From a virus, in UHGV virus genome UHGV-0205584: a stretch of DNA of 36,382 nt; one strand, given 5' to 3'. The position numbers were made by a program, and so were the translations under genes. This document shows, piece after piece, positions 21,499 to 36,382 of this stretch (position 1 is the first letter of the stretch; each line of letters opens with the position of its first letter). The notes beneath the pieces were generated by a model that searched no databases, was not told the origin of the DNA, and worked only from the letters and a program-made list of their open reading frames with translations.

Positions 21499-22029
21499 AT
21501 GCAAGAATTAACGAATTTCATGGGCGAGGCGTGGCGGACGTTGACGGATTCGTTCGTATTAAAGGCCTTGCTTGCCGTCATCGCCGATGTGGCGATATAT
21601 ATGATTGGCTTAAAACATGTGCAGGTGCTAGGAATATTTATATTACTGGTATTCCTAGACCTCATCACGAAATGGGCAGCTATATCGTATCAAATGCTTA
21701 TTGATATGGGGGCAAATGCTGACAATCTAACGGCATTAGACAAATATATAGCCATTCCAGCTGCATGGGGTAAGGGGCTTATATCCTCAAAGCATATGCG
21801 TAAGCCTTTCGTTACAAAAGTTTTAACATATTGCCTAGCCACAGGCGCCGCATGGTGCTTTGACTGCATGGCAGGTCAATACGCTTTTGCCGTCAATATC
21901 GTATGGCTGTATCTCGGCTCGGTTGAATTGTTGAGCATACTCGAGAACATGCGAGACGGTGGAAATACTACCATATCGGGCTTGCTGGACGTGGTTCATG
22001 CAAGAGTAGATATGATTTTGAAAAAATAA
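21499..22029 (+). CDS. Holin (phage holin 4_1-like)
   Basis: Several TM segments; LVFLDLIT, ISSK.MR, ELLSILEN motifs. Confidence 0.85.
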   Translation: MQELTNFMGEAWRTLTDSFVLKALLAVIADVAIYMIGLKHVQVLGIFILLVFLDLITKWAAISYQMLIDMGANADNLTALDKYIAIPAAWGKGLISSKHMRKPFVTKVLTYCLATGAAWCFDCMAGQYAFAVNIVWLYLGSVELLSILENMRDGGNTTISGLLDVVHARVDMILKK

Positions 22030-22044
22030 TATAGTGTTGTTTGT

Positions 22045-22075
22045 GCCACGCTCACGATATATGGGCGTGGCTTTT
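22045..22075 (+). terminator. Terminator-like hairpin between holin and endolysin
   Basis: GCCACGCTCA/TGGGCGTGGC stem followed by TTTT. Confidence 0.65.
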
Positions 22076-22148
22076 GTATTTGAAAACTAGAAATAACGAT
22101 AAAAGCACTATTAAATTATCGTTAAAAGCAGAAACAGAGGTGCATATA

Positions 22149-22538
22149 ATGAAAATTGGTACATATTTCGATGATTACGAATTCGCTTGTAAATGTGGCC
22201 GTCATGGATACGATAGCGACGGACACCCTATTCTCGACCATGTGATTGATAAAAGGCTCGTTGATGTATTGGACGCTATCCGCGAACGTATCGGCCAACC
22301 TATTGAGGTGTTGAGCGGTTATCGTTGCCCTATCCATAATGAGGAAGTAGGGGGCGTGGCAGATTCTCAACATGTAGTAGGTACAGCGGCCGATATTACT
22401 TATGACGGCATTAACGTTGACTACCTCGCCGAAGTGGCCGAGGAATGTGGTGCCGACGGCATTGGGCGATATTATAATCAAGATTTCGTCCATGTTGACG
22501 TGAGGGGCTGGGCCGCTCGTTGGACAGACCAAGACTAA
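22149..22538 (+). CDS. Endolysin, peptidase M15 family
   Basis: EFACKCG, SGYRC..HN..VGG...SQH..G.AADI, FVHVDVRG motifs; ATG 22149 after GAGGTG. Confidence 0.9.
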   Translation: MKIGTYFDDYEFACKCGRHGYDSDGHPILDHVIDKRLVDVLDAIRERIGQPIEVLSGYRCPIHNEEVGGVADSQHVVGTAADITYDGINVDYLAEVAEECGADGIGRYYNQDFVHVDVRGWAARWTDQD

Positions 22539-22553
22539 TATAGGGGGCGTGTG

Positions 22554-23015
22554 ATGTATGAAATTATCAAAAACAAAATTGTACATGCGGTTACTATTCG
22601 GCGCGTTGTTTATGGTGTTATTGGCATTTTGCTCATCTATCTCATTGGCAGCCTCGCCAGCGGATACTTTGAAACAAGAGCCGACTATAAACGTACCTTT
22701 GAGCAGTTGGAACGAACTCAAAGGGCGCTTGATGAAAGCAGAAAGCTCAATCAACAACTCAAAGCAAGCATTGCAGCAAGCCAACAGCTTAACAGCGACG
22801 CAGGGCGACGAATTGAGCAGGCTCAAGACTATCAACGAGAAACAAGGGCAGGAATTGAGCAACTTGAAACAAATCAACGAGAAACAAGCGCAAGAATTGG
22901 CGAAAGCCTCGAACATCTCGACGCAGCAAGAGGAGAAATTGGAAGAGGCCTCGAACTCATTGAGCGAATTGAAAGAGCAAATCAAACGCAACAAACGAAC
23001 AGAGCAACGCCTTAA
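22554..23015 (+). CDS. Spanin-like protein A (N-terminal TM + coiled coil)
   Basis: VVYGVIGILLIYLIGSLA TM followed by heptad-rich region; follows endolysin. Confidence 0.6.
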   Translation: MYEIIKNKIVHAVTIRRVVYGVIGILLIYLIGSLASGYFETRADYKRTFEQLERTQRALDESRKLNQQLKASIAASQQLNSDAGRRIEQAQDYQRETRAGIEQLETNQRETSARIGESLEHLDAARGEIGRGLELIERIERANQTQQTNRATP

Positions 23016-23079
23016 ACGGCAACGCACAATATGGGGCGTAGTGGCTGGCGTGGTTACAGTTGCGGCAGCTGTTAAATAA
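22558..23079 (+). CDS. Spanin-like protein B (signal peptide, coiled coil, C-terminal TM), overlapping A in the +1 frame
   Basis: N-terminal signal ..LFMVLLAFCSSISLA, long heptads, C-terminal IWGVVAGVVTVAAAVK. Confidence 0.7.
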   Translation: MKLSKTKLYMRLLFGALFMVLLAFCSSISLAASPADTLKQEPTINVPLSSWNELKGRLMKAESSINNSKQALQQANSLTATQGDELSRLKTINEKQGQELSNLKQINEKQAQELAKASNISTQQEEKLEEASNSLSELKEQIKRNKRTEQRLKRQRTIWGVVAGVVTVAAAVK

Positions 23080-23184
23080 TGCGGGGGTGGTCCTATTATC
23101 TCCCTACCATACGAGGGCGGACGTATGGGAACTTGTTCCAAAATGGAACGAGTTATAAAGAATTAGTTTATAGCTGAAACGCAT
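23079..23184 (+). ncRNA. Candidate multibranch structured RNA downstream of lysis genes
   Basis: Stems 23107-13/23122-28 and 23130-40/23144-54, closing ATGCG/CGCAT, possible loop pairing GTCCT/AGGGC. Confidence 0.4.
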
Positions 23185-23185
23185 A

Positions 23186-23239
23186 AAGGCCTATCGTGGT
23201 AGTATTTTACAGAACTATCGCGGTAGGCTTTTTTATTTT
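23186..23239 (+). terminator. Late-operon intrinsic terminator
   Basis: ~18-bp G-U-rich stem AAGGCCTATCGTGGTAGT/ACTATCGCGGTAGGCTTT followed by T-tract. Confidence 0.8.
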
Positions 23240-23248
23240 GCCTATTTT

Positions 23249-23320
23249 CAAAAGAATATCAAAAGAATATAGAAAATCGTCAAAAGATTATCAAAAGAAT
23301 GGCAAAAGATTGCAAATAAA
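23249..23320 (+). repeat. Phased ~11-bp repeats CAAAAGA(A/T)T
   Basis: Copies at 23249, 23260, 23281, 23292, 23303; degenerate units at 23271 and 23313. Confidence 0.8.
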
Positions 23321-23322
23321 CC

Positions 23323-23367
23323 CTTGCATATATCTTGAATATATGATATTATATAATCAAAGGTAAG
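23323..23367 (+). promoter_or_regulatory. sigma70 promoter/operator, copy 1
   Basis: TTGCAT-17-TATTAT with extended TG; imperfect palindrome TTGAATATATG-N4-TATATAATCAA. Confidence 0.75.
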
Positions 23368-23411
23368 GCAATGAGACTTACCAGTTGTTAAAAGAAAGGA
23401 AACCACACACC

Positions 23412-23684
23412 ATGAAAATTTTAATGACAGAAGATTTCACAGCAACATTACAAGACAATCAAAAAGATTTCTTGAAACTCATGTTTGACGGCGCACTAAG
23501 CGCAGCACATTCAGCGGCTGCACAATATCGAGTATATAAAGACGAAATCGACAAACTTGATTTTGTAGCCAACATGAAAGCAACGTTCAATTATCAAAAT
23601 CTTGGCGGTATTGAATCGAATCCGCTACTTGATGACTTAACTGAAATGTATTCAAATATCATGAATGCAGCTGCTGACAGATAA
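23412..23684 (+). CDS. Accessory hypothetical protein (90 aa), candidate anti-defence protein
   Basis: ATG 23412 follows the GAAAGGAAACCACACA RBS motif; has its own promoter. Confidence 0.75.
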   Translation: MKILMTEDFTATLQDNQKDFLKLMFDGALSAAHSAAAQYRVYKDEIDKLDFVANMKATFNYQNLGGIESNPLLDDLTEMYSNIMNAAADR

Positions 23685-23692
23685 TAAAATAA

Positions 23693-23711
23693 GGCCCCTA
23701 CTATAGGGGTC
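23693..23711. terminator. Small GC hairpin flanked by A-rich tracts
   Basis: GGCCCCTA-cta-TAGGGGTC; U-tract only when read on the minus strand. Confidence 0.45.
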
Positions 23712-23753
23712 AATAAAATAATACATTATATACATTCAAGAGGAGACAATACT

Positions 23754-23948
23754 ATGAGTAATAAAAACCAATGGGGCGGCGCTCGTAAAGGAGCGGGGGC
23801 GCCTGTTACAGTTGGCGAAGAGGGACGCCGTAAACCTCGGGCCATTCAAATGAACAACGATGAATATGCAGCCCTAAAAACTGCAGCAGAAAAAGCAGGA
23901 ATGAGCATATCGGAATATGCAAGAAAAAAGATTTTTGAAGATTTATAA
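23754..23948 (+). CDS. Small ribbon-helix-helix-like DNA-binding protein
   Basis: WGGARKGAG N-terminal motif, then RAIQMNNDEYAALKTAAEKAGMSISEYARKK. Confidence 0.75.
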   Translation: MSNKNQWGGARKGAGAPVTVGEEGRRKPRAIQMNNDEYAALKTAAEKAGMSISEYARKKIFEDL

Positions 23949-23954
23949 AAAGTA

Positions 23955-23999
23955 CTTGCATTCTATTTGATTATATGTTATCATATAATCAAAGGTAAG
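23955..23999 (+). promoter_or_regulatory. sigma70 promoter/operator, copy 2
   Basis: TTGCAT-17-TATCAT with extended TG; perfect palindrome TTGATTATATG-N4-CATATAATCAA at 23967-23992. Confidence 0.75.
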
Positions 24000-24029
24000 A
24001 CATAATAGTAATGAAAGGGGATTACAATC

Positions 24030-24347
24030 ATGTTAGAAATTATCAACCAATACGCACCAGTAAAAAAACACCTTGCAACAGTCGAAACACCTTACGAGGC
24101 ACTATCTTATATCGTTGATTTATCCGCAAACACTATGGACGTGGACACCATTATAGATGACCCAGAAAGCGGCTTGATTGAAGATATGCCCGAACTCATC
24201 GAGCAAGTAAAGAATGGCCTTGAAGTGTTGATGAACGCCGACGGCGAATATGCTGTATTTAACCCTAAAGAATTAACAGTTGATACAGTCAACACATTAC
24301 TCTATGATGTGCGCATGAGTGATTATAAGGTTATCGAGGTAGAATAA
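24030..24347 (+). CDS. Acidic accessory protein (105 aa), candidate anti-defence protein
   Basis: Very D/E-rich; own promoter; SD GAAAGGGG; 3' end overlaps integrase 3' end. Confidence 0.75.
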   Translation: MLEIINQYAPVKKHLATVETPYEALSYIVDLSANTMDVDTIIDDPESGLIEDMPELIEQVKNGLEVLMNADGEYAVFNPKELTVDTVNTLLYDVRMSDYKVIEVE

Positions 24348-25887
24348 GGCGTATAGGGTAAAGCGAGCCGCCTATATAAAAGTGGTTCGCTTTATTGTAT
24401 GAGTTGCCCACCAATATGCTAAAATGCGAACCGCTTGCAGATTGCTCAGAGAATTCTGGCAATTCACTCTTATAATTAAATACGATTTCAACCCTATCAC
24501 TATGTATGGTTACGTTTTTGATAAAAGTATCGAGAATACGCGAACGGCCTGCTTTTGTGGTAGGGTTTTCGTTTGCCATTCTTTCAAGAAAATACTCTAT
24601 ATGTTCGGCTGTAAATTTGATAGGTGAGATTATACTTTCATGGTTCGCTTTTTGCTCGAGTAGGTTTTGACGTTCTTTTTCTAGGTTTTCAATTTCGGCT
24701 TTTAAACGCTCATTAATAAAACCCTGTTTAATGGCCGTCATACAATTATTTAATTCTGTATCAATAGCTTTAATTTTCCCCTGTAAGCCCTGTATGGCCG
24801 TTTTAGCCTCTTGGGCGGTATGATTATATCCATTCATTACTAAATCGACTATACGAGCGATAATTTGGGGTTGTTTTAGGATTTCAAGCGTTCTATTTAT
24901 GACTAAATCTTCTAACTCATCGCGGCGTATGTTTGGCGCGCTGCATGTGTGATATTTGCGGCGGTTGGTGCATACATAATAATGATGTTTCTCGCCGTTG
25001 CGTGATGTAGCAGTAGACCCCATATAATGCCCGCCACATTGGCCGCATATCAAGCGACCACATAAATTATACATTTCACTTCTCCGTCCTTTATTCTTAA
25101 TTCTAGTAGGTAGTATCCGCTGCACCTCATCGAATACATCACGGGCGATAATAGGCGGGATAGAATCCTCGATTCTAATATCGCCCCATTGATACACGCC
25201 GATATATTTCTCATTGCTCAATATATTGCGTATGACGCTGTACGAAATCTTGCCGCCTCGTTTAGTTGTATATCCTTTACTATGCAAAATATCCGCTATT
25301 TTAGCCAGTGAGTACTGTTTTAAATATAGGCTATATATTAACCTTACCGCCTTGGCCTCGTGAGCATTCACGGCTAAATGGTGGCTTTCTGTAAGGTCAT
25401 AACCTAGAGGAACGGCCGAGCCGTTCATCTTGCCTTTAAGGGCGTTTTCAGTCATGCCGCGCTTGACCTTTTGCGATAGCTCTACAGAATAATATTCAGC
25501 CATACCCTCGAGCATGCTTTCTAAAATGATACCCGCAGGCTCGTTGGTGATGTGTTCCTTGGCACTTAACACTCTAACCCCATTACGGCGTAATATGCCC
25601 TTATATTTGGCGCTATCCTCACGGCTACGGCTGAATCTATCTAATTGATACACTATTACATAATTAAATGTTTGATTCGCGCTATCACGAATCATCTGTA
25701 AGAATTCTGGGCGGTTATCCGTTCGCGCCGATAAAGCCCTATCTGTATATATTTTAGTAATAAGAATTCCCTCACGTTGAGCGTATTCGGTGCATTCCCG
25801 TATTTGCCCCTCTATGGATTCGTCCCGTTGCTTATCGGACGAGTAGCGTGCATATATCACGCCTGTTTGTAAATCGGTATTATTCAT
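24331..25887 (-). CDS. int: Large serine recombinase (integrase), 518 aa
   Basis: YARYSS, LDRFSR catalytic domain, recombinase domain, CGQCG...YYVC...C zinc ribbon, coiled coil; start MNNTDLQ after GAAAGGAAATCACACA. Confidence 0.95.
   Translation of the reverse strand: MNNTDLQTGVIYARYSSDKQRDESIEGQIRECTEYAQREGILITKIYTDRALSARTDNRPEFLQMIRDSANQTFNYVIVYQLDRFSRSREDSAKYKGILRRNGVRVLSAKEHITNEPAGIILESMLEGMAEYYSVELSQKVKRGMTENALKGKMNGSAVPLGYDLTESHHLAVNAHEAKAVRLIYSLYLKQYSLAKIADILHSKGYTTKRGGKISYSVIRNILSNEKYIGVYQWGDIRIEDSIPPIIARDVFDEVQRILPTRIKNKGRRSEMYNLCGRLICGQCGGHYMGSTATSRNGEKHHYYVCTNRRKYHTCSAPNIRRDELEDLVINRTLEILKQPQIIARIVDLVMNGYNHTAQEAKTAIQGLQGKIKAIDTELNNCMTAIKQGFINERLKAEIENLEKERQNLLEQKANHESIISPIKFTAEHIEYFLERMANENPTTKAGRSRILDTFIKNVTIHSDRVEIVFNYKSELPEFSEQSASGSHFSILVGNSYNKANHFYIGGSLYPIRLILPR
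24380..24436. other. Candidate attP inside the 3' end of int
   Basis: Inverted repeat AAGTGGTTCGC...GCGAACCGCTT (GGTT..AACC span 49 bp) centred on GCCCACCA, a tRNA 3'-end-like sequence. Confidence 0.65.
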
Positions 25888-25918
25888 TGTGTGATTTCCT
25901 TTCAAATTGTATAAGTAT

Positions 25919-25944
25919 AGCCCCCTTGATAGGGGGCTTTTTTT
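25919..25944 (+). terminator. Plus-strand intrinsic terminator upstream of int (antisense orientation)
   Basis: AGCCCCCT-tgat-AGGGGGCT followed by a run of T. Confidence 0.75.
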
Positions 25945-26422
25945 ATTTCTTATGCTTACTATTATATTTTGCTTGCGCCTCGGCCATTTTGCCACTTTGA
26001 ACGGCGAAATTAAAAGCATATATTGCTGTTTTGTACTCGTCGGAACCCTCGACGATTGGAACTATAGGCGTAGGCGTGATTGTGCCACCTATCACATAAT
26101 CAGCGTTGCGCGCGAAGTTTGTCTCTCTATCTACTTGATAGAGTACGGCGTAAGGCTTGCCAGAGCCGTGCGGGTCAAGCACATAATGAAAATGGTTTAA
26201 CTTCCATGTAATATATGGCTTGCTTGTGTCATCTTGGCTGGTATATAAGAGTATTTCCACACTTCCGCCGTCATAATTCTTTACGTCTAAATCAGCCCGC
26301 ACGCTAACGTTTACGCCGTTGGCCGTAGTGTAAGCTGGTACAAATGGCGCGTTTGGATTATGTGCCATTACTGGAATTGATAAAAATGAGCATAATGCAG
26401 CCGCAATAATCAACTTTTTCAT
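25943..26422 (-). CDS. Secreted/periplasmic protein in lysogeny module (superinfection exclusion candidate)
   Basis: Signal peptide MKKLIIAAALCSFLSIPVMA; lies between repressor and integrase. Confidence 0.7.
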   Translation of the reverse strand: MKKLIIAAALCSFLSIPVMAHNPNAPFVPAYTTANGVNVSVRADLDVKNYDGGSVEILLYTSQDDTSKPYITWKLNHFHYVLDPHGSGKPYAVLYQVDRETNFARNADYVIGGTITPTPIVPIVEGSDEYKTAIYAFNFAVQSGKMAEAQAKYNSKHKK

Positions 26423-26445
26423 ACTAACCCCCTAATAATATATAT

Positions 26446-26973
26446 CTATTTCCCTTTCAAAAACGCCTCTATAAGTGCCTTAATGGTAGCCCTCTCATCA
26501 TCGGTGATGATGTGCTTGCCATAAGATAATACATTATCACGCTCAAGAATAACCTTTAAATTAATCCCGTCGGAACTCTCTATATTTAGCAATGTAGAGG
26601 GTTCCTTTTTTAATTGCGGTATTTCAAGCTGCTGGATAACGTCTTTTTTCAAAGCACACGCTACATACAAATCGTCAATAGCATCGTCATCATACATGGA
26701 TAAGTCAATATCAGCGCCGCATTGATGAATGAAGTCTATTTTTTGTTGACGCATGGCGTCGAAACCCTCAACCTCACCAGTTAAGTAATACACAGATACA
26801 CCAAAATAGTCGGCTATTGCCTTTAATTTATCCAATTTAGGAGATGAGCGGCCTTTCTTCCAATCTGTAAGTGATGCGGTGGATATTCCTGTATCCTTTC
26901 CAAGCTTGTAAGCGCTGATGTTTTCTCGGTTTAGCAAGCTTTCTATTCGTTTCCAAACAATTTTTTTATTCAT
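26446..26973 (-). CDS. CI-like repressor (XRE HTH)
   Basis: ISAYKLGKDTGISTASLTDWKKGRSSPKLDKLKAIADYFGVSVYYL; divergent from cro-like gene. Confidence 0.9.
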   Translation of the reverse strand: MNKKIVWKRIESLLNRENISAYKLGKDTGISTASLTDWKKGRSSPKLDKLKAIADYFGVSVYYLTGEVEGFDAMRQQKIDFIHQCGADIDLSMYDDDAIDDLYVACALKKDVIQQLEIPQLKKEPSTLLNIESSDGINLKVILERDNVLSYGKHIITDDERATIKALIEAFLKGK

Positions 26974-27010
26974 TGTTGATTTCCTATTTAAATTTTTTAC
27001 AAACGCTTAA

Positions 27011-27106
27011 TTGGACTAACTCGTAAATGTGAGATATTATGTAATCACAAGGTAGCTAACAAATACGAGATAAACTAACAAATACATAAATTCGTATTTA
27101 TTAGCT
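27011..27106. promoter_or_regulatory. Genetic switch: operators (CTCGT-AWWT-GTKAG-like) and rightward promoter
   Basis: Sites at 27020-33, 27056-69 (reverse), 27075-88 (partial), 27091-104; TGGACT-17-TATTAT at 27012-27040. Confidence 0.6.
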
Positions 27107-27156
27107 AACATATATTAATTAATTCCAATATATCAGAAAAGAGGTGATTTTACAAC

Positions 27157-27339
27157 ATGTATGAAAAAATCGACAAGCTATTAAAAGATAACAACATTAC
27201 ACCTTATAGAATGTGCAAGGTGCTTGGGATTAAGACGTCATCTATGACGGCATGGAAACAGGGCAAATATAAGCCGAGCGTCGACAACTTGAAAAAGATT
27301 GCTGATTTCTTTGGGACTACTATTGATTATTTTTTATAG
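27157..27339 (+). CDS. Cro-like repressor (XRE HTH)
   Basis: 60-aa HTH, WKQGKYKPSVDNLKKIADFFG; SD GAGGTG. Confidence 0.9.
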   Translation: MYEKIDKLLKDNNITPYRMCKVLGIKTSSMTAWKQGKYKPSVDNLKKIADFFGTTIDYFL

Positions 27340-27358
27340 GTAGAAAGGAAACCACACA

Positions 27359-28105
27359 ATGAACGAATTACAAATATTCAATAATGCAATGTTTGGTAAT
27401 GTGCGAGTTTTATTACAAGGCGATGAACCTTGGTTTGTTGCAAAGGATATCGCTGATACTCTCGGGTACCAAAACGGTAGTCGAGATGTAAACCGACATA
27501 CTGATGAAGAAGATAGAACAAAGACAATGGTGTTTGATGGTAATCAAAATAAAGAAACGATTTTGATTAATGAAAGCGGACTTTATTCATTGGTACTATC
27601 TAGCAAATTACCAAACGCGAAACAATTTAGACGTTGGGTAACAGGTGAAGTGCTTCCAAGCTTACGCAAATATGGAACGTATAGCATGGATATCCCTAGA
27701 ACGTTGCCAGATGCCTTAAAAGCATATGCTAGTGAAATCGAGGCACATAACCAAACAAAAGCCCTGTTAGAGGAACAAAAGCCAAAAGTACTATTTGCTG
27801 ATGCGGTAAGTGCAAGCGACACCGATATATTAATCGGTGATTTAGCGAAACTCTTAAATCAAAACGGCCATAACATCGGACAAAATAGACTGTTTGAGCG
27901 GCTAAGAAAAGAGGGCTATTTAATTTCTAGGAAAGGAAACTCTTACAATACGCCAACGCAAAAGGCTATGGAACTAGGACTTTTCAGAATTAAAGAAACC
28001 GCTATTACTCACGCGGACGGGCGAACAACAATAAACAAAACGCCAAAAGTAACAGGTAAAGGCCAATTATATTTTATTAATCGCTATGAGGGCGTGCAGT
28101 TATGA
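27359..28105 (+). CDS. Antirepressor (BRO-N + ANT/KilAC)
   Basis: EPWFVAKD, INESGLYSL, F.RWVT.EVLPS; KPKVLFADAV, TPKVTGKGQ.YFI. Confidence 0.92.
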   Translation: MNELQIFNNAMFGNVRVLLQGDEPWFVAKDIADTLGYQNGSRDVNRHTDEEDRTKTMVFDGNQNKETILINESGLYSLVLSSKLPNAKQFRRWVTGEVLPSLRKYGTYSMDIPRTLPDALKAYASEIEAHNQTKALLEEQKPKVLFADAVSASDTDILIGDLAKLLNQNGHNIGQNRLFERLRKEGYLISRKGNSYNTPTQKAMELGLFRIKETAITHADGRTTINKTPKVTGKGQLYFINRYEGVQL

Positions 28106-28263
28106 CGCTGTTCATTGATGAAATTCACAAATTTTATAGCAATCCTCAAAATCTAGCGGACTTTGAGGCATGGAAAGAAAGGAAATTACACAATGATGAC
28201 ACAACAACAAAAACCACGGCGCAGACGCGGACGTGTGAAGAAAAACAGAATGAAACTTATTGA
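28102..28263 (+). CDS. Small hypothetical protein (53 aa)
   Basis: ATGA overlap with antirepressor stop; MTLFIDEIHKFYSNPQNLADFEAWKERK... Confidence 0.55.
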   Translation: MTLFIDEIHKFYSNPQNLADFEAWKERKLHNDDTTTKTTAQTRTCEEKQNETY

Positions 28264-28327
28264 TATTATAGGCGTTATTGGCTGGGTATCGTTGATATAT
28301 GCGGCCGTGGTGCTTTGGTTAGTTTAG
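28193..28327 (+). CDS. Small membrane protein (44 aa)
   Basis: ATG directly after GAAAGGAAATTACACA; basic N-terminus plus C-terminal TM IIGVIGWVSLIYAAVVLWLV. Confidence 0.55.
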   Translation: MMTQQQKPRRRRGRVKKNRMKLIDIIGVIGWVSLIYAAVVLWLV

Positions 28328-28337
28328 AGGTGAAACG

Positions 28338-28436
28338 ATGAATTTTATTATTGAATGTTTAATGATTGCAGGTATGGCACTCTCGGCGGTATTCGTTTTA
28401 CATTGCCTTGTTATTATCGCCGTGTTATTGGCATAA
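28338..28436 (+). CDS. Small hydrophobic peptide (32 aa)
   Basis: SD GAGGTG; MNFIIECLMIAGMALSAVFVLHCLVIIAVLLA. Confidence 0.55.
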   Translation: MNFIIECLMIAGMALSAVFVLHCLVIIAVLLA

Positions 28437-28504
28437 AAAAAGAACAGCCAACAAAAAGCTGACTGTTCAACGTTCCAATCGTTAATAACGAAAGGAAACC
28501 ACAC
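28435..28504 (-). ncRNA. Predicted ~70-nt trans-acting antisense sRNA
   Basis: Promoter TTGACA-17-TACAAT upstream; 5' end GUGUGGUUUCCUUUC complementary to a repeated RBS motif; terminator GAACAGUCAGC/GUUGGCUGUUC + U7. Confidence 0.75.
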
Positions 28505-28510
28505 AACAAC

Positions 28511-28539
28511 ATTGTAATGTATCTATTCTTAATTGTCAA
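28511..28539 (-). promoter_or_regulatory. Near-consensus sigma70 promoter for the sRNA
   Basis: Plus-strand TGTCAA 28534-39 and ATTGTA 28511-16 read as TTGACA-N17-TACAAT on the minus strand. Confidence 0.85.
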
Positions 28540-28560
28540 AAGAAAGGAAACCACACAAAC

Positions 28561-29490
28561 ATGTACAAGAAAATTTTTGACAGCAAAAACGCCACTCGTG
28601 AGGAATGGTTAAAGGTTCGCAAGTTAGGCCTCGGCGGTTCAGATATGGCCGCAGTATTGGGGTTAAGCCCTTGGCGCAGCCCTATTGACGTATGGCTTGA
28701 TAAAACGAGCGACACAGTAGAGGAAAAAGAAAGCGAGCCGATGTATTGGGGCAACGTACTCGAGGAAGTAGTAGCGCAGGAATTCGCCAAACGTAGCGGG
28801 TATAAGGTGCGCAATAACAACTTTACTCTACAAAGTGAGGAATATCCTTATTTATTGGCTAACATTGACCGCGAAATCGTCGGCCTAGACGCTGGCCTCG
28901 AATGTAAGACGGCCAACGCATTCAAGGCTAATGAATGGGACGGCGACAATGTGCCAGACGCTTATTATATCCAATGCCAGCATTACATGGCGGTAACGGG
29001 TAAATCTAGCTGGTGGATAGCGTGCCTCGTAGGTGGAAATACATTCTACTACAAAGAAATCAAGCGTAATGAGGAAGTCATCGCGGCCATTATCGACACT
29101 GGGGCGGCATTCTGGGAATTAGTTAAAAATAAGACCATGCCAGCGCCAGACGATACGAAACAATGCGAAAACGCTCTCAAGAAACTCTATCAAAATAGCA
29201 ATGGCCAAAGCGTGGAACTACCTGCTAACTACGGGAACATGATTATTGACTATTTAGAAATCAAAAATCAACTATCCGAATTAGAGACTAAAAAGCGCGG
29301 CATTGAAAACGTGATGAAAGATTTCTTGAAAGATAACGAAAGAGCCACATACGGCGAGCATTTTGTTTCATGGAAATCCACGAAAGCACGAGAAACGTTT
29401 GACGCAAAAGCGTTCAAGGCCGATTACCCCGAACTGCATAAAAAGTATATTAAAGTCGGCGAACCAAGCCGCAGAATGGACATCAAATAA
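28561..29490 (+). CDS. YqaJ-like (lambda Exo family) exonuclease
   Basis: EEWLKVRKLGLGGSD, LLANIDR, GLECKT, YYIQCQHYMAV. Confidence 0.93.
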   Translation: MYKKIFDSKNATREEWLKVRKLGLGGSDMAAVLGLSPWRSPIDVWLDKTSDTVEEKESEPMYWGNVLEEVVAQEFAKRSGYKVRNNNFTLQSEEYPYLLANIDREIVGLDAGLECKTANAFKANEWDGDNVPDAYYIQCQHYMAVTGKSSWWIACLVGGNTFYYKEIKRNEEVIAAIIDTGAAFWELVKNKTMPAPDDTKQCENALKKLYQNSNGQSVELPANYGNMIIDYLEIKNQLSELETKKRGIENVMKDFLKDNERATYGEHFVSWKSTKARETFDAKAFKADYPELHKKYIKVGEPSRRMDIK

Positions 29491-29648
29491 TGAAAACATG
29501 TGATTTGAGAAAACTGCTCGAGGCTGCTCCTTATGATTTTGGTGTACACATCGAAACGCCTGTAAACATCACCCAATATACAGCAGAGGCAAAAGCGGTA
29601 TATATCGACTTTGAAAATAAATTGTTTGTAATAGGAGATAAAAAATAA
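29490..29648 (+). CDS. Small hypothetical protein (52 aa)
   Basis: TAATG coupling at both ends; fills the gap exactly. Confidence 0.6.
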   Translation: MKTCDLRKLLEAAPYDFGVHIETPVNITQYTAEAKAVYIDFENKLFVIGDKK

Positions 29649-29893
29649 TGGAAAACACAGAAAACAAAGAAATTGAAACAGTAGAAACAAAGCCAAAAAG
29701 AAAACATTTACTTGCAGAAATAGCAAAATTAAATGAACTTAACAAAAAGCTAGAAGATGACCTCAGATATAGCAATATGCGAGTTGAGAATCGTGAAAGA
29801 AATATCACCGAACTAAAAGCAGAAATCACCGCATTGCGTGCATATGTGGCTGGCGTAAAAGGCGACGCATTCCCAGAAAGTGAGGATAAATAA
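29648..29893 (+). CDS. Coiled-coil hypothetical protein
   Basis: 81 aa, SD AGGAG, heptads. Confidence 0.7.
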   Translation: MENTENKEIETVETKPKRKHLLAEIAKLNELNKKLEDDLRYSNMRVENRERNITELKAEITALRAYVAGVKGDAFPESEDK

Positions 29894-29895
29894 TA

Positions 29896-30771
29896 ATGGC
29901 AACTACAACAGGAATTGAATTAAAGAAAAATAACATCACGGCGCAAAAAGAGGCCAAGACAGTAAAAGGAATGCTTGAAACGCCAGCATTCAAAAAGAAA
30001 TTCGAGGAAATGCTTGGCAAAAAGGCGGCGGGATTTATCTCAAGTATTATCGCCGTAACAAATAGCAGCAATTATCTTATGAAAGCTGACCCTGCGACAG
30101 TTATCGGCGCAGCAGCACAGGCGGCCATGTTGGACTTGCCGATTAATCAATCTCTTGGGTTCGCTTATATCGTTCCATATAAAGGCGCTGCACAATTCCA
30201 ACTCGGCTATAAGGGCTATATCCAATTAGCCCAACGTAGCGGCCAATATATTGATATTGGGGCAAAAACAGTATACGAGGGCGAGCTTGAATATGAAAAC
30301 AGATTACTCGATAAATTCAAATTCGGCGAACGTACGAGCGATAAAGTCATCGGCTACCTAGCATATTTCAGACTTACAAACGGCTTTGAAAAAATGCTGT
30401 ATATGACTATTGATGAGGCACAGGCACATGCCAAGAAATATAGTCAAAACTATAAGGGCGGTACCGACAAATGGGGCCTTGCAGATTTCAATGTAATGGC
30501 CGAGAAAACAGTACTTAAACGTCTACTTTCAAAATATGGCCCGTTGAGCATTGAAAGCGTTCAAATGAGCCAAGCCCTAGCCAATGACGGCGGCGTGATT
30601 AGCATGAATAATGACGGCGATTTTGATGTAAATTTCAGCGGTGAAACAATCGACGCAGAAACAGAAACAGAGGAACAGACGGAACAACCTGCAGAAAATC
30701 ACGATACCTATATCGTAGGTGGCGAGGTTATCGACGCAGAAACTGGCGAGGTAGTACATGATGACAAATAA
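29896..30771 (+). CDS. recT: RecT-family single-strand annealing protein
   Basis: LGFAYIVPYK..AQFQLGYKGYIQLAQRSGQY, MAEKTVLKRLL.KYGPLSIE. Confidence 0.93.
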   Translation: MATTTGIELKKNNITAQKEAKTVKGMLETPAFKKKFEEMLGKKAAGFISSIIAVTNSSNYLMKADPATVIGAAAQAAMLDLPINQSLGFAYIVPYKGAAQFQLGYKGYIQLAQRSGQYIDIGAKTVYEGELEYENRLLDKFKFGERTSDKVIGYLAYFRLTNGFEKMLYMTIDEAQAHAKKYSQNYKGGTDKWGLADFNVMAEKTVLKRLLSKYGPLSIESVQMSQALANDGGVISMNNDGDFDVNFSGETIDAETETEEQTEQPAENHDTYIVGGEVIDAETGEVVHDDK

Positions 30772-31021
30772 CGATAAAATGCTCGCTCAATTCGGTGCTG
30801 ACTGGGTGAAAGTAAGAGATTTTATCGAATCATTAAAGGCGTTTTATATTTCTTACACGCCTACGTTTATGGTGCGAATAGAAAAGGAGACAGGCGTGCC
30901 AGCCAATACAGTTAAAAGCATTTTAGACTACGGCCTACAGATTGGGCTATATGGCAAGACGAGCGATAGAGATTATATCACGTTATCGCCTGTTAGAAAG
31001 GAGCGACATGGCAGAACCTAA
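30758..31021 (+). CDS. Hypothetical protein (possible winged-helix)
   Basis: 87 aa, SD GAGGT, overlaps neighbours. Confidence 0.65.
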   Translation: MMTNNDKMLAQFGADWVKVRDFIESLKAFYISYTPTFMVRIEKETGVPANTVKSILDYGLQIGLYGKTSDRDYITLSPVRKERHGRT

Positions 31022-31892
31022 ACGATATTACTGGCTACGGCTGCATAAAGATTTCTTTCAAAAGAAAGAAATTAAGCGATTACGGCGGGTGGCTGGTGGT
31101 GATACTTACACCATCATCTACTTAAAAATGTTATTAAGGTCAATCATTGACGGCGGGAAATTATACTTTGACGGCTACGAGGATACATTTGTATCAGAGT
31201 TAGCACTCGACATTGACGAAGATGAACAAAATGTTCAAATAACTGTAAATTATCTATTAAAAAATGGTTTATTAATTGAATGCGAAAATGACGAGTATTA
31301 TCTACCCGAGGCAACCAACAATACAGGCTCAGAAACCGCTGCAGCCAGTAGAATGCGGAAACTTCGAGATAAGTCAAAAGGTTCAGAGTGTAACAATGTT
31401 ACGCCATTATGTAACAATGTTACACCTATGTTACAAGAATGTTCGCAATCGTTACAAACCTGTTACGGAGAGAAAAAGATAGAGAAAGAGTTACATAAAG
31501 AGATACATAAAGAGATAGAACACAGAGATAGAGATATAAGTATATCTACAACTAGAGAGGATAAAGAAATCGAAAATTCTCAATCTCTTCCTCCTATGTC
31601 AAACACAGATATATATGATTTGTGGATAAGCTTCTTTGGGATTATCTCCTCTTTTGTCAAAGGCAAACTTGATGACCTTATCGATGAATATGGTCTTATC
31701 GATGTATCAAACGCCTTGCGTATTGCAAAAGAGCGAGGCAAATCAAGAATACGATACGTTGAGGGAATTTTGAAAAATCAGAGGTTAGAAAATGGAGCAA
31801 ATGGACGTAACGGCGGCACTCGAGCAACTACGAGAAAAGATGAGCAAGTCGACTGGGAGCAAGAGGCGGCCAAGACCTACGGACAAGATTGA
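31008..31892 (+). CDS. Replication initiator (replisome organizer N-terminal domain, DnaD-like C-terminus)
   Basis: KRYYWLRL.KDFF....IK.LR...GG.TY.IIYLKMLL; RYVEGILKN; ATG 31008 after AAGGAG. Confidence 0.88.
   Translation: MAEPKRYYWLRLHKDFFQKKEIKRLRRVAGGDTYTIIYLKMLLRSIIDGGKLYFDGYEDTFVSELALDIDEDEQNVQITVNYLLKNGLLIECENDEYYLPEATNNTGSETAAASRMRKLRDKSKGSECNNVTPLCNNVTPMLQECSQSLQTCYGEKKIEKELHKEIHKEIEHRDRDISISTTREDKEIENSQSLPPMSNTDIYDLWISFFGIISSFVKGKLDDLIDEYGLIDVSNALRIAKERGKSRIRYVEGILKNQRLENGANGRNGGTRATTRKDEQVDWEQEAAKTYGQD
31389..31545 (+). repeat. Putative replication origin: iterons within rep
   Basis: TGTAACAATGTTAC x2 (31389, 31410); GTTAC at 31398, 31419, 31430, 31451, 31462; then purine-rich AGAGATA-type tract. 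Confidence 0.75.
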
Positions 31893-32517
31893 GTTTTATA
31901 AGCCAATCTATGACAAGCCGATTGTAATCCGCTCAAATATCAACGAAACATATGCAGCTGCTGGTATTCCTAAACGCTACTACGGCATGAGTTTTGACTG
32001 GCTAAAAGAGCATGGCACATTTCAGAGCGCCAACAAAGAGGCGTATGCCGTTGTTAAAGATTACAGGGATAATCTGGCGGAGTATATGAATACAGGAAAG
32101 GGCCTCATATTAAGGGGACCCGCTGGCACAGGCAAGACGTCGCTCGCTGTATGTCTACTTAAAGAGGTGATGAAGTTAAACACAGGGGCAATGATGATTT
32201 CAATGCCTAACCTGCTTGATACTATGCTCACCTTATCAAAGGGCGATAGAGTGGCGTACCTAGCCTATGAGCAAAAGCTAAAACACATTCCAATGTTGCT
32301 GCTTGATGATTTCGGGGCTGAATATTCCAAATCGGACTGGGTAGCGGCTAAAGTCGAAAGTATCATCATTGAACGATACAACAGCATGAGGCCGATTATC
32401 CTTACAACTAATTACAGCGACCAATGGACTAAGGACAATTACAGCGGCCGCATATATGACCGCTTACGAGGCGAGTATAAAGTTGCGGTATTCATGGGGC
32501 AGTCTCATAGAATCTAA
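31792..32517 (+). CDS. DnaC/IstB-like helicase loader ATPase
   Basis: GPAGTGKT Walker A, LLLLDDFGAE, ILTTN, RIYDRL. Confidence 0.9.
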   Translation: MEQMDVTAALEQLREKMSKSTGSKRRPRPTDKIEFYKPIYDKPIVIRSNINETYAAAGIPKRYYGMSFDWLKEHGTFQSANKEAYAVVKDYRDNLAEYMNTGKGLILRGPAGTGKTSLAVCLLKEVMKLNTGAMMISMPNLLDTMLTLSKGDRVAYLAYEQKLKHIPMLLLDDFGAEYSKSDWVAAKVESIIIERYNSMRPIILTTNYSDQWTKDNYSGRIYDRLRGEYKVAVFMGQSHRI

Positions 32518-32519
32518 AA

Positions 32520-32611
32520 TTGATTTATTCGCCCTGTATGCTCGTTTAAATTTTTCGACGATAAAATACTCGTTAGAAATATTTCACGGGGCAAGACGGG
32601 GCGGAAATCAA
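32520..32611. other. Long imperfect intergenic hairpin
   Basis: Nested arms TTGATTT/AAATCAA, CGCCCTG/CGGGGCG, TGCTCGT/ACGGGGCA, AAATTTTTC/GAAATATTT, GACGA/TCGTT. Confidence 0.55.
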
Positions 32612-32653
32612 CGCCAAATTAAAAAATAAAACAAAAGATATAGAGGTGAAATC

Positions 32654-33232
32654 TTGGAAATTGTAATTCACGGCCAACCAAGGACGAAAAAGAACAGCGG
32701 CCGCATTGTGATAAGGGACAATATCAGAAAACTCCTACCCTCGGACGCATTTATTCGATATGAAAAGGCGGCATTGTTGCAGCTGGTACATGTTGGCGCT
32801 GTTCAAGGACCAATCTCGGTATGTTGCCGTTATTATTTACAAGACAGACGGAGCTGGCCCGATTTGGTTGGCCTGTTACAAGCGACTTCCGACATATTGC
32901 AAGACGCTGGCGTGATTGAGGACGATAAATATATCGTGAATTATGACGGCTCGGAAATCGTAGGGCTTGACAAGGAAAATCCTAGAGTAGTGATTACAAT
33001 TCATCAAATTGCCGAATCAAGTATCTTATGCGATGAATATGCCAAGGCGAAAGCTAGAGAGTGCGACACCACTCAACGGCCAAAAAGCCGACAAGTTGCC
33101 AAGAGAGGGGCTAAGGCTAAACCAAAAGCCCCTACCTCAATCTCATATATCGAATATCGAAAGTTAATGATGAAAGGAAACCACACACATGAACGAAACA
33201 GAGTACAGGCTACGCCTAAAAGGCGAAATTGA
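32654..33232 (+). CDS. RusA-like Holliday junction resolvase with basic C-terminal extension
   Basis: TTG start after GAGGTG; GQPRTKKNS, PDL..L.....DIL..AGVIEDD, DKENPRV.ITI. Confidence 0.8.
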   Translation: MEIVIHGQPRTKKNSGRIVIRDNIRKLLPSDAFIRYEKAALLQLVHVGAVQGPISVCCRYYLQDRRSWPDLVGLLQATSDILQDAGVIEDDKYIVNYDGSEIVGLDKENPRVVITIHQIAESSILCDEYAKAKARECDTTQRPKSRQVAKRGAKAKPKAPTSISYIEYRKLMMKGNHTHERNRVQATPKRRN

Positions 33233-33407
33233 TATAGAGGCCGTGATAGCGGCTACATCGGAAAGCGACGCAATCGATAAAGCGGCCGCCGTGCAAGAGG
33301 CAATCAATAATCAAATTACGATTGATTGCGGCAATATCGCTGATGTGAAAGAAATCATCACGAACGAAATTACATTGAGATTCGTATGTGCAGAAATTGC
33401 GGATTAA
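33189..33407 (+). CDS. Hypothetical protein (acidic, 72 aa)
   Basis: ATG after exact GAAAGGAAACCACACA motif. Confidence 0.7.
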   Translation: MNETEYRLRLKGEIDIEAVIAATSESDAIDKAAAVQEAINNQITIDCGNIADVKEIITNEITLRFVCAEIAD

Positions 33408-33417
33408 GGGGGATAAC

Positions 33418-33633
33418 ATGGGATATATTAAGGCAGAATATGGCAAGAATAATATGTTCGAGTTAGACATTGAAATTAAAGACTGCAATTCTATCGAATG
33501 TTTATCTTTTGCTAGTGGTGTAGCTGAGGAAATTCTCAACAGTATAGCAAAAGGGAAATCGAAAACGTTTATAGGCTACAAAAGAGCGCTTATCGGTGCT
33601 ATAGAAATGGCGGAGTTTAACAATCATGAATAA
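33418..33633 (+). CDS. Hypothetical protein
   Basis: ATG 33418 after AAGGGGG. Confidence 0.65.
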   Translation: MGYIKAEYGKNNMFELDIEIKDCNSIECLSFASGVAEEILNSIAKGKSKTFIGYKRALIGAIEMAEFNNHE

Positions 33634-33916
33634 ACTATCAGAGCGATTTGAACAAAAAATTCCGACATTCTTGGCTCATCTTGACGTGTGGAATGACACG
33701 CCAATGAGCGACTGCAAATATACAACACACGATTATAAGCGGGAAATGCACAAACAGAATTACACAAAAAAATGTGTAATTTGCGGTAAAACATTCACTT
33801 GCACGAATTACAACAAACGCCAATTATGTTGCAGTCGAGCGTGTGGCAATAGATTAGGCGGTATTAGGCGAAGAGAAACAATTGATAAACGAAAAGCAGC
33901 GATGAAAGGGGCCTAA
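33626..33916 (+). CDS. Cys-rich putative zinc-finger protein
   Basis: CVICGKTF...CCSRAC motif. Confidence 0.7.
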   Translation: MNKLSERFEQKIPTFLAHLDVWNDTPMSDCKYTTHDYKREMHKQNYTKKCVICGKTFTCTNYNKRQLCCSRACGNRLGGIRRRETIDKRKAAMKGA

Positions 33917-33918
33917 TT

Positions 33919-34326
33919 ATGTTAGTGGAAGATAAGAGTAAATATTGCTGGGTTACGCCCAACGGAATCGGCGGCCCAGAGGATAGCGTAGAGCAGGCAG
34001 TCAAAAGCTATCTATGTTTACATAGACCAGATGAGAACGCAGATATTGTTATAGGAATCGGACACCCTAGTTTTTACATTCCCGACGTTGACGGGGACAG
34101 CGTGATTGAAAGCGTTATAGACCAATTACCAGATGAAGTCTATGACACGGACGAGGATTATTTACATGACGTCAAACGTGAGCATGTAAACGAATTAAGT
34201 GAAGAACTAACAAAGGTATTCCGTGCATGGGTTAACCGCCACGGATACCACCATAGAGGCATGTTTGTAGAAAACAGTGAGACACATCATATTAAGCGAT
34301 ATGAGTATAAGGAGATAACGAAATGA
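33919..34326 (+). CDS. Hypothetical protein
   Basis: 135 aa, SD AAGGGG. Confidence 0.7.
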   Translation: MLVEDKSKYCWVTPNGIGGPEDSVEQAVKSYLCLHRPDENADIVIGIGHPSFYIPDVDGDSVIESVIDQLPDEVYDTDEDYLHDVKREHVNELSEELTKVFRAWVNRHGYHHRGMFVENSETHHIKRYEYKEITK

Positions 34327-35744
34327 ACACAAAATATTTAGCAGCAATCATGACAATTACAGCATTAACAGCACCAGCATATGCAGCTGGTACAAATAAT
34401 ACAATAGGCGGCACCGATAACATCGCCACGGCTAATAGTGCGGCGGTGTTTGGCTATCAAAACCAAACAAACGCAAATAATACGCTAACATTCGGGGAGA
34501 ATAACATCACGAACGGAACGAATGCGTTCGCAGGCGGTAATAATTCCAAAGCCGAGGGAAGAAATACATTCGCATTCGGTAGTCATGCCGAGGCGCTAAC
34601 CGAATACACTTATGCGATTGGTTCGCAGGCTAAAACGTCGGCCTATGACGCGATTGCGGTAGGAAACGGCGCTTATGCAGGCGGCGAGAGTACTATTGTT
34701 ATCGGAAGAACAAACACAGTCAACGGGAAAAATTCCGTTGTAATCGGTGCCAATAATATGCAAGTAGACGGCGGGCAGTCAACTGTACTCGGATATAATA
34801 ACCGCGTTGATAATTCACAGGAACAGACAATTCTAGGCGCTAACAGTCAAACGGCTGGACAGGGCGCGACAGTTATCGGAACACATGCAAAAGCAACAGC
34901 TATTGACGCCCTAGCGATTGGCAATAATACAATCGCCGACAAGTCGAACAGTGTGGCGATTGGTACTAACAGCGTTACAGACGAGGCAGTCGCAACTCGT
35001 CAAGCGATTGTAAATGGCGTAACGCATGTTTTTGCTGGCGATTCACCTCAATCCGTTGTATCTGTAGGCAGTAAGGGCCATGCTGGATATGGTGGCGTGC
35101 AATATTACACTCGACAAATCACAAACGTCGCAGCGGGGCGAGTAGACCCTAACAGCACCGACGCCATTAATGGCAGTCAGCTGTATGCTGCTTATGACGA
35201 AATCGGCCACAACGGCACAGCAATTCAAAATTTAGCCAATACTACCAGCCAACAATTTGCAGCGGTAAATAACACTATCACCGCACAAAATACGCGTATC
35301 GGTGATAATACGGCGGCGATTTCGCAACATGAAAGCCAATTACAAAATCATGAGGCTAGAATTACAACGCTAGAACATAACACAGCGGGACAGATTTCTC
35401 ATGTATTGAGCGAAGTCGCAAAAACAGGCGCGGCTAATGCAGCACTTTCCGCTTTGCACTATCTCGGCTATAACGCAGATGACAAATTAACATTTGCAGC
35501 TGGTTATGGACATTATAAAAATGCTAATGCGGCCGCTATTGGTGCATTCTACGCGCCGAATGAACATGTATTATTCAACATCGGCGCAACGCTTGGCGGC
35601 ACTGCAATGATTAACGCTGGCGTATCGTTCCGATTAGGTAAAGGCAGCGAGTACGAATTGAACCATAAAGGCAAAATCGCGCAACTTGAGGCACTAGTAA
35701 ATGAATTAATCAATGAAGTGGCAGAATTGAAAGAGGCGAAATAA
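34323..35744 (+). CDS. YadA-like trimeric autotransporter adhesin
   Basis: Signal peptide, AxG head repeats, RQITNVAAG...TDAINGSQL neck, stalk, beta-anchor (AAGYGHYKNANA.AIG.FY.PNE...GVSFRLG), C-terminal coiled coil. Confidence 0.92.
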   Translation: MNTKYLAAIMTITALTAPAYAAGTNNTIGGTDNIATANSAAVFGYQNQTNANNTLTFGENNITNGTNAFAGGNNSKAEGRNTFAFGSHAEALTEYTYAIGSQAKTSAYDAIAVGNGAYAGGESTIVIGRTNTVNGKNSVVIGANNMQVDGGQSTVLGYNNRVDNSQEQTILGANSQTAGQGATVIGTHAKATAIDALAIGNNTIADKSNSVAIGTNSVTDEAVATRQAIVNGVTHVFAGDSPQSVVSVGSKGHAGYGGVQYYTRQITNVAAGRVDPNSTDAINGSQLYAAYDEIGHNGTAIQNLANTTSQQFAAVNNTITAQNTRIGDNTAAISQHESQLQNHEARITTLEHNTAGQISHVLSEVAKTGAANAALSALHYLGYNADDKLTFAAGYGHYKNANAAAIGAFYAPNEHVLFNIGATLGGTAMINAGVSFRLGKGSEYELNHKGKIAQLEALVNELINEVAELKEAK

Positions 35745-35950
35745 TGAAAGGGTTATTACTAATAATTGTGGTTGTATTGGGATTAATTGGAAAGGTTGCG
35801 AGCGTTGCGCTCGCAATCGCCCTCATACTTTGGTTGATTGGATTATTTGGAATTACTGGCAGTGATGTGTTAAGAGTATTGTTTACAGTAATTGGACTTT
35901 ACACTACTTCAATAATGTTGTTTGTAATCGCCGAATCAAAAGAGGGCTAG
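35744..35950 (+). CDS. Small membrane protein
   Basis: 68 aa, almost entirely hydrophobic; TAATG coupling. Confidence 0.7.
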   Translation: MKGLLLIIVVVLGLIGKVASVALAIALILWLIGLFGITGSDVLRVLFTVIGLYTTSIMLFVIAESKEG

Positions 35951-35953
35951 CAT

Positions 35954-36148
35954 ATGACATTGCTATACAAAAAGCTTAAAGATTACATTTTAACAAGCTA
36001 CGATTTAAGTAGCTTGGTGAGTGCCAGCCATAAATGTACAGCGTTTTATGAGGCAGGGGAAATCACAAAGCTAGAATATCGAAAGCTAATGAAATGTATC
36101 GATAGGATAGTTATAAAAGGCTGTAAATGCGAGAGAATTGGATTGTAA
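35954..36148 (+). CDS. Hypothetical protein
   Basis: 64 aa, SD GAGGG. Confidence 0.6.
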   Translation: MTLLYKKLKDYILTSYDLSSLVSASHKCTAFYEAGEITKLEYRKLMKCIDRIVIKGCKCERIGL

Positions 36149-36160
36149 AAGAGGTGTAGA

Positions 36161-36373
36161 ATGTACAATCTCAATGAATTGATAAAAATAGGAATTGATG
36201 AAATTGTAAGTTATACGGATTATAGAGGGTTCGCAATAGTTGAATTCAAATGCATGGATAAAATAAGCCCAGATAAATTACAAAAGACATTGCAGTATGT
36301 CAGAGAAATTACAAAAGGGGAACCATGCAACGAGATATATGTGAAAGCCAATATTTTAATTGATAGAAATTGA
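36161..36373 (+). CDS. Hypothetical protein
   Basis: 70 aa, SD GAGGTG. Confidence 0.65.
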   Translation: MYNLNELIKIGIDEIVSYTDYRGFAIVEFKCMDKISPDKLQKTLQYVREITKGEPCNEIYVKANILIDRN

Positions 36374-36382
36374 GGTGATAGT

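Follow-up and report, generated by a model that had tools for sequence, protein, structure and literature searches.

Genome organisation and a repeated 16-mer over translation starts

The stretch of DNA analysed here, UHGV virus genome UHGV-0205584 (36,382 nucleotides (nt), called the window throughout), is the genome of a temperate siphophage. Packaging, head, tail and lysis genes occupy positions 933-23079 and are followed by a small accessory cassette and then by genes for a serine integrase (int), CI, Cro, a Bro-N/KilAC antirepressor (ant), a YqaJ/RecE-like exonuclease and RecT, together with replication and RusA genes. Since relatives of the YqaJ protein at 94-98% and at 77-81% were found in IMG/VR contigs and Veillonella genomes, the host of this phage is most likely Veillonella. 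Our subject is a 16-mer that recurs over the ribosome-binding sites (RBSs) of dispersed early genes, and a predicted small antisense RNA complementary to it.

Scanning the window for the 16-mer with up to three mismatches returned seven matches, whereas 0.22 were expected and no more than two occurred in any of 100 shuffles. Six of the seven end 0-3 nt 5′ of an ATG and include the Shine-Dalgarno (SD) sequence of the gene concerned. Exact copies had been placed by an earlier note, made from the sequence of the window, at 23394, 27343, 28542 and 33172, and all four were recovered there. On the plus strand they cover the RBSs of orf90 (tag 23394..23409, gene 23412-23684), of the antirepressor (27343..27358, gene 27359-28105), of yqaJ (28542..28557, gene 28561-29490) and of orf72 (33163..33187, gene 33189-33407), the last consisting of the exact 16-mer at 33172-33187 with a 9-nt upstream extension. 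Two variants reported in the same note were found as well: one with a single C>T over the RBS of the integrase (25888..25903, minus strand; int at 25887-24331), and one with two C>T over the RBS of orf44 (28177..28192, plus strand; gene 28193-28327). We refer to these six copies as tags. The seventh match (28490..28505, plus strand) is exact and has no start codon downstream; it is the template of the predicted RNA, being the complement of the RNA seed. None of the seven lies at a structural gene of the window, in agreement with the earlier reading of the sequence. The 16-mer itself is not palindromic (2/16).

Two weaker sites had also been proposed. The orf105 site (24006..24026, plus strand; gene 24030-24347) lies over the RBS and differs from the template over 21 nt by three A>G and three C>T, as claimed, and is thus wobble-only; pairing is lost at the two bases that follow (C>A, A>T). 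In front of cI (26973-26446) the leader reads AGGAAATCAACA-ATG, a partial site at 26974..26985 on the minus strand. No family in PHROGs, Pfam or NCBIfam was found for orf90, orf105, orf44 or orf72.

A predicted antisense RNA carries the complement of the tags

The template copy lies at the start of a predicted transcription unit on the minus strand. Its -35 box, TTGACA (28534..28539), abuts the yqaJ tag and is separated by a 17-nt spacer from a -10 box, TACAAT (28511..28516); this was the best promoter-like site (11/12) among the 42 ranked over 21900-36382, with a predicted start at about 28504-28505. The putative small RNA of about 70 nt (28436..28505) would comprise a single-stranded 5′ toehold, a hairpin (28473..28497) hiding the anti-SD UUCC by pairing it with GGAA, and an intrinsic terminator hairpin with a U tract (28436..28468), the last found by the promoter/terminator scan. 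The computed folding energy of the 70-nt RNA is -25.2 kcal/mol (z -5.8), against -14.3 for the sense strand, and the hairpin lowers the number of non-target leaders at or below -5 kcal/mol from 39 to 17 of 49. Rfam covariance models run over the whole window gave no family for this RNA, and only a chance match to Phe_leader (E 0.6) was returned.

When duplex energies were computed with the 5′ 27 nt of the RNA, the seven proposed leaders took ranks 1-7 of 56. For 200 seeds shuffled with the anti-SD core held fixed, 1.0 leaders on average reached -20 kcal/mol or lower; the largest count of any shuffled seed (8) nevertheless equals the real count (8, including the holin by scattered pairing), which limits the ranking result. 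After the costs of opening both the RNA and the mRNA were included, six leaders stood clear at net energies of -14.3 to -30.0 kcal/mol, and orf105 (-9.5) and cI (-9.3) fell below the best non-target, a tail gene (-12.5). On these computed values cI and orf105 are doubtful targets, and the graded repression suggested by the earlier note corresponds to a calculated energy ladder only.

The antisense unit is conserved in related phages

We collected 61 loci including the window, which fall into 17 of type A, 29 of type B (27 via YqaJ and two via the pattern) and 15 of type D; type D loci were found by the target-site pattern, and a DUF1351 gene replaces yqaJ there. Some loci are near-duplicates (L044/L045, L008/L026). 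In 61/61 the -10 hexamer lies 5 nt 5′ of TGTGTG with a 17-nt spacer, while the -35 box is TTGACA in 17, TTGACT in 11, TTTACA in 15 and the poor TTTCTT in 18. The unit is thus kept in every locus despite four promoter sequences and two unrelated downstream genes (YqaJ, DUF1351), and the terminator tract is missing in a single one, L280.

The fold is conserved as well. The minus strand gave the better fold in 22 of 23 distinct terminator hairpins, and G-U pairs numbered 35 on the minus strand vs 1 on the plus strand; we therefore take the minus strand to be the transcribed one. Covariation was scored on the terminator (29 of 32 distinct RNAs aligned); the MAFFT alignment misregisters the first hairpin. 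Terminator cells were paired in 98.4% of cases and double changes were present in 7 of 11 pairs, with both the paired cells and the covariation score exceeding 500/500 shuffles. The predicted unpaired probability of the toehold was 0.88-1.00, and that of the anti-SD core at most 0.07, in all 32 distinct RNAs. This masking is achieved by three different inner stems, the one of type D using GCC/GGC instead of UUCC/GGAA.

Of 120 Veillonellaceae genomes searched with a covariance model, 3 contained the RNA, always within these prophages. A detector of antisense units, which recovered 4/4 controls, flagged 8/49 other YqaJ loci, 2/79 generic-pattern loci and 1/4 annotated Listeria, Streptococcus, Staphylococcus and Latilactobacillus phage stretches; apart from L309, which is a type B phage, every flagged unit was weak or overlapped itself. 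Seeds of antisense units from distant Veillonella phages had no second site in six of seven loci, and the seventh had one site without a start codon. Outside the three Veillonella types only a single-target analogue was found: L305:5925-6070, in an unrelated phage, is laid out alike, with an antisense -10, a hairpin masking the anti-SD and 12 nt that match the RBS of the next gene; only one target was found in 12 kb.

In the window the same detector also flagged a further antisense RNA with a seed, over the RBS of int (plus strand, 25888-25945). We rejected it as a conserved feature because its -10 (TATTAT) stems from two consecutive Asn codons of int, where most relatives begin with MNTT instead. 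Short antisense units, made up of a -10 box, a short body and a terminator, are also present at 25919-25945 of the window and in L052-L057 and L293; they precede int and recombination genes of other Veillonella phages, match no other leaders, and are possibly the ancestral form of the seed RNA.

The RNA and the tags change in concert

Following the GG of the SD, the template reads AAACCACACA in 17/17 type A, AACATCACACA in 29/29 type B and CAACCACACA in 15/15 type D loci. It is monomorphic within each type, whereas 9 of 13 target groups with at least two members are polymorphic. Phages of type A carry A tags and those of type B carry B tags in the int, cro-adjacent, recombination-gene and orf72 leaders. 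At orf90, 10 of 12 loci have a B-type tag, including 5/5 contigs known to carry the B RNA; G052 agrees, and the window is A-type. The RNA of the phage's own type was the best partner for 22 of 23 distinct A leaders and 33 of 34 distinct B leaders, and CACACA or ACACA was retained at 180 of 184 sites. The 25-nt match proposed for orf72 is indeed paired over its full length in the window, but the extension is complete in only 4 of 14 type A loci. In the relatives, most cI leaders lack the partial site.

Tag type is independent of the repressors. CI of the A-type L016 and of the B-type L043 are 98% identical over the N-terminal 62 residues, CI proteins of A-type phages range from 98% down to 37% identity to that of the window, and Cro is 100% identical between the window (A) and L064 (B).

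Several mosaic phages carry leaders of another type and thus represent natural RNA/tag mismatches. L274 is D-type upstream with an A-type orf72 start, L064 is a B phage with an A-type ant leader, and L273 and L284 are D phages with B-type int leaders.

G-U compatibility is a bias rather than a rule

The earlier note had argued that A>G and C>T, the changes tolerated as G-U wobbles, favour RNA-RNA recognition over protein-DNA binding. Within one genome this argument is weak, because the 16-mer contains no T and its Gs mostly belong to the SD, so that "A>G and C>T" amounts to "transition". We therefore counted distinct events (type, gene, position, change) in 184 sites against each phage's own template; these sites had passed an energy filter that favours pairing, and five degenerate orf44 leaders, one replaced and two foreign-type int leaders and the untagged leaders of Ant homologues were left out.

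In types A and B, 17 of the 21 distinct changes after the GG fit G-U pairing (10 C>T and 7 A>G). Of the four others, two are the last two bases of orf105 and two belong to the A-type leader recombined into the B phage L064. The background rate of transitions from A or C was 0.46-0.49 at fourfold sites, 0.56 at biallelic sites and 13/26 in non-target leader spacers; against this measured background the excess gives p 0.002-0.016, and p 0.20 if the true rate were 0.7. Changes that do not fit also occur: one-A indels in 52 of 85 type B sites (40 deletions, 12 insertions), a template A>G at SD -2 in three B loci and A>C in three D int leaders. Eighteen further metagenome loci, picked on the template alone, with 73 leaders found by N-terminal pattern and possible overlap with the first set, contributed one new internal substitution (A>G) and one 3-nt deletion, besides five degenerate orf44 leaders, two replaced int leaders and 7 of 14 ant-type leaders without a tag.

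Thus, across homologous phages the substitutions are non-random in types A and B, and G-U compatibility is, as read from these alignments, a real bias concentrated at the toehold/SD junction. It is not a strict rule: the mismatch of type D described below, the B indels and the degenerate leaders show that it is not exclusive. The preference for RNA-RNA over protein-DNA recognition is well supported, but mostly by other evidence, namely the conserved antisense unit, the invariant template, the concerted A/B change and the independence from CI and Cro.

The motif is rare in host genomes

In five Veillonella genomes the A pattern, at up to two mismatches, had 10 matches (six in prophages and four elsewhere), and the reversed control had 9. 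All four matches outside prophages carry two mismatches, and no exact host copy was found there. The B pattern had five matches in three Veillonella genomes, all within prophages. On these counts the motif is not a common host RBS. Unrelated phages do have single copies of the 16-mer before an ATG, where it is an ordinary RBS.

One host leader deserves a separate mention: at L287:1501-1516 (G006) the gene for a 373-residue host membrane protein is preceded by an A tag with one A>G and one C>T. A covariance-model search found no such RNA in G006.

A proposed mechanism and the points against it

In our assessment it is quite probable that the 16-mer is the binding site of one trans-acting phage small RNA (28505-28436, minus strand), which would block translation of six early mRNAs. 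In the lysogen this RNA would be made by the host sigma-70/sigma-A polymerase, most likely constitutively. Its free 5′ end, UGUGUG, would nucleate on CACACA beside the start codon; strand exchange would then open the hairpin, and UUCCUUUC would pair with GAAAGGAA, covering the SD and the spacer and blocking initiation. Masking by the hairpin would confine the action to tagged leaders and spare other SDs, while G-U pairs and one-base bulges at the toehold/SD junction would be tolerated and may tune the strength of repression. The promoter/terminator scan found no strong terminator ahead of yqaJ, and therefore the early rightward transcript would hold the whole complement of the RNA. On induction, the cro-ant-yqaJ transcript would cross the RNA gene head-on and could titrate the RNA, thus setting a threshold.

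The likely role of such an RNA would be that of a second lock behind CI, suppressing leaky expression of the antirepressor, recombination functions, integrase and accessory proteins. Such an RNA would probably act without Hfq, to which no match was found in 4/4 Veillonella genomes, with the control positive in 5/14. If this is true, gut and oral Veillonella prophages would control lysogeny at a second level, through one Hfq-free RNA that silences dispersed tagged early genes and does not depend on the exchangeable CI/Cro module. Types A and B would then be natural orthogonal RNA/tag pairs, which are easy to test, and the masked anti-SD design resembles a natural toehold switch.

A number of observations weigh against this mechanism. 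In type D, all targets have a fixed G-A mismatch with their own RNA (G-G in two); of the 11 distinct leaders of this type, the D RNA is the best partner for just 2, and seven prefer the A RNA because of this mismatch. Target sites are not universally kept: 27 of 33 leaders of Ant homologues have no tag and one has a partial tag, so that the antirepressor tag is optional, the orf44 leader is degenerate in 5 of 16 A loci, and in three loci the int leader is replaced (one) or of foreign type (two). The -35 box is the poor TTTCTT in 18 of the 29 type B loci, and the number of terminator pairs with double changes was not above that in shuffles (162/500). Upstream of the core there is no wobble polarity (13 vs 10 of 86 pairs); moreover, repeated changes at different genes may have been copied by recombination instead of arising independently, and ribosome binding may have favoured A>G beside the SD. 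Finally, silencing of the integrase in the lysogen is plausible, but its timing during establishment is left unexplained.

Alternative explanations

The best-surviving alternative, improbable in our view, holds that the tag is a strong C/A-rich RBS leader, spread and kept uniform by short-homology recombination (RecE/RecT) and used as a crossover point for modules, with the antisense RNA acting as a local cis regulator or terminator and the other matches being incidental. The single copies before ATG in unrelated phages agree with this, as do the crossovers visible at or near the tags in L274, L064, L273 and L284, and the short antisense units without target matches that precede yqaJ in other Veillonella phages. 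However, it leaves unexplained why the non-coding copy is the invariant and A/C-richest one, why the anti-SD is masked by three hairpins with a free toehold, and why the wobble bias is above background. Spread of the leader by recombination is probably a contributing process, and recombination and recognition by the RNA may both be partly true, the tag having begun as a strong RBS.

Less probable still is that a phage protein binds the tags as DNA, as operators or stoperator-like sites, with the copy at 28490 being one more operator, that of a minor antisense promoter. Cluster A mycobacteriophage repressors are described as binding asymmetric, transcription-oriented repeats near gene starts (PMC9283540), and changes that preserve purine or pyrimidine would also fit protein-DNA readout. 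Nevertheless, tag type follows neither the CI DNA-binding domain nor Cro, and one-base indels in the middle of 52/85 B sites, a register fixed on the SD and the lack of a palindrome all speak against DNA sites. We give equally little credence to an RNA-binding protein that would read the tag on the mRNA in the manner of T4 RegA, a translational repressor, with the antisense RNA only modulating: the tag of the candidate, orf72, is among the two strongest, and by sequence orf72 divides into A (89-96%) and B (39-48%), but type D has A-type tags yet only 36-41% orf72 homologues, a decoy RNA would be sense while the promoter and terminator are antisense, and orf72 is without a family.

Other features of the window

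The accessory cassette at 23250-24347 contains orf90, orf64 (NikA-like ribbon-helix-helix) and orf105. It has two near-identical promoter/leader blocks (TTGCAT...TATAATCAAAGGTAAG) with tandem CAAAAGA repeats upstream, a layout that recalls anti-defence operons with an autoregulator. A gene for a YadA-like trimeric autotransporter (34323-35744) lies within the early/middle region, and in relatives the leader of this gene is a partial look-alike of the tag. Matches to the terminase large subunit are split over two open reading frames (2214-2435 and 2511-3671), which may reflect a split gene, a frameshift or an assembly error.

Comparison with known systems

Full-text searches of mainly open literature gave no description of the tag/RNA element, nor of any phage RNA that covers a large set of tagged RBSs. 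The closest phage systems are c4 of P1/P7 (77 nt) and Sar of P22 (68/69 nt), described as short RNAs that pair at the RBS region of antirepressor mRNA and favour lysogeny (PMC12197685). The Veillonella phage RNA likewise matches the antirepressor RBS, with 16/16 predicted pairs at 27343, although this site is optional in relatives. Differences in the c4 sequence are reported to give P1/P7 heteroimmunity (PMC12197685), and types A and B might act in the same way. Phage immunity RNAs known to date are described as acting on a single antirepressor message; c4 and Sar control ant (c4 via sites in its own operon), whereas here the seed matches up to 6-7 unlinked leaders on both strands. Moreover, c4 is described with seeds placed in loops, whereas a 5′ toehold seed and a masked anti-SD are predicted here. 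Covariance models of C4, c4-a1b1 and other Rfam phage antisense families had no match in the window.

GcvB is a further parallel. Its G/U-rich R1 seed is described as pairing with C/A-rich elements at many translation starts (PMC9299463), and the phage RNA also has a G/U-rich seed complementary to C/A-rich elements at several RBSs of the phage. However, GcvB is a host RNA, Hfq-dependent and with short imperfect sites, whereas the RNA proposed here is phage-encoded, with near-perfect matches of 16-25 bp, no host Hfq found and no Rfam match. In UCCC-motif RNAs of low-GC Gram-positives (LhrC, RsaE, RNAIII, SprD, FsrA) a C-rich segment is reported to bind the SD as a stem rearranges (PMC4132741). 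The phage RNA is also aimed at the SD with a predicted opening of a stem, but the motif of those RNAs is exposed in a loop or single strand, while the UUCC or GCC of the phage RNA is predicted to be paired in 32/32 and specificity would come from the adjacent toehold. The phage RNA thus resembles c4/Sar in target logic, GcvB in seed chemistry and UCCC-motif RNAs in SD targeting, and is a member of none of them. Comparative sequence support for a multi-target phage antisense RNA is strong.

The tags themselves are most like the SAS repeats of cluster K mycobacteriophages, described as asymmetric SD-containing repeats that lie a few nt before the starts of non-structural genes and are rare in the host (PMC3203893, PMC11373665, PMC12699233). 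The tags share all of these properties, but their sequence is unlike the SAS consensus GGGATAGGAGCCC and the host belongs to another phylum. The role of SAS was still called unknown in papers of 2024-2025 (PMC11373665, PMC12699233), and the available passages of these sources report no trans-acting RNA for SAS, whereas a candidate RNA partner can be identified here. As a separate observation, a single reversed SAS is present in a structured intergenic region on the plus strand of Anaya (L417:31871-31883) and of Adephagia (L464:4683-4695); in both, UCCUAUCC lies in the predicted loop of a long hairpin, a candidate anti-SAS RNA. It was not seen in the Pixie stretch examined. Late transcription of Adephagia is reported to start in the interval that holds the reversed SAS (PMC11373665). 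As a tentative generalisation, which we regard as possible rather than likely, phages may stamp one RBS tag on chosen genes to be read by a single toehold-gated RNA, the types being CI-independent immunity groups at the RNA level, and the same logic may explain the SAS repeats of cluster K. If this is true, the tag/RNA logic gives a concrete hypothesis for the SAS repeats.

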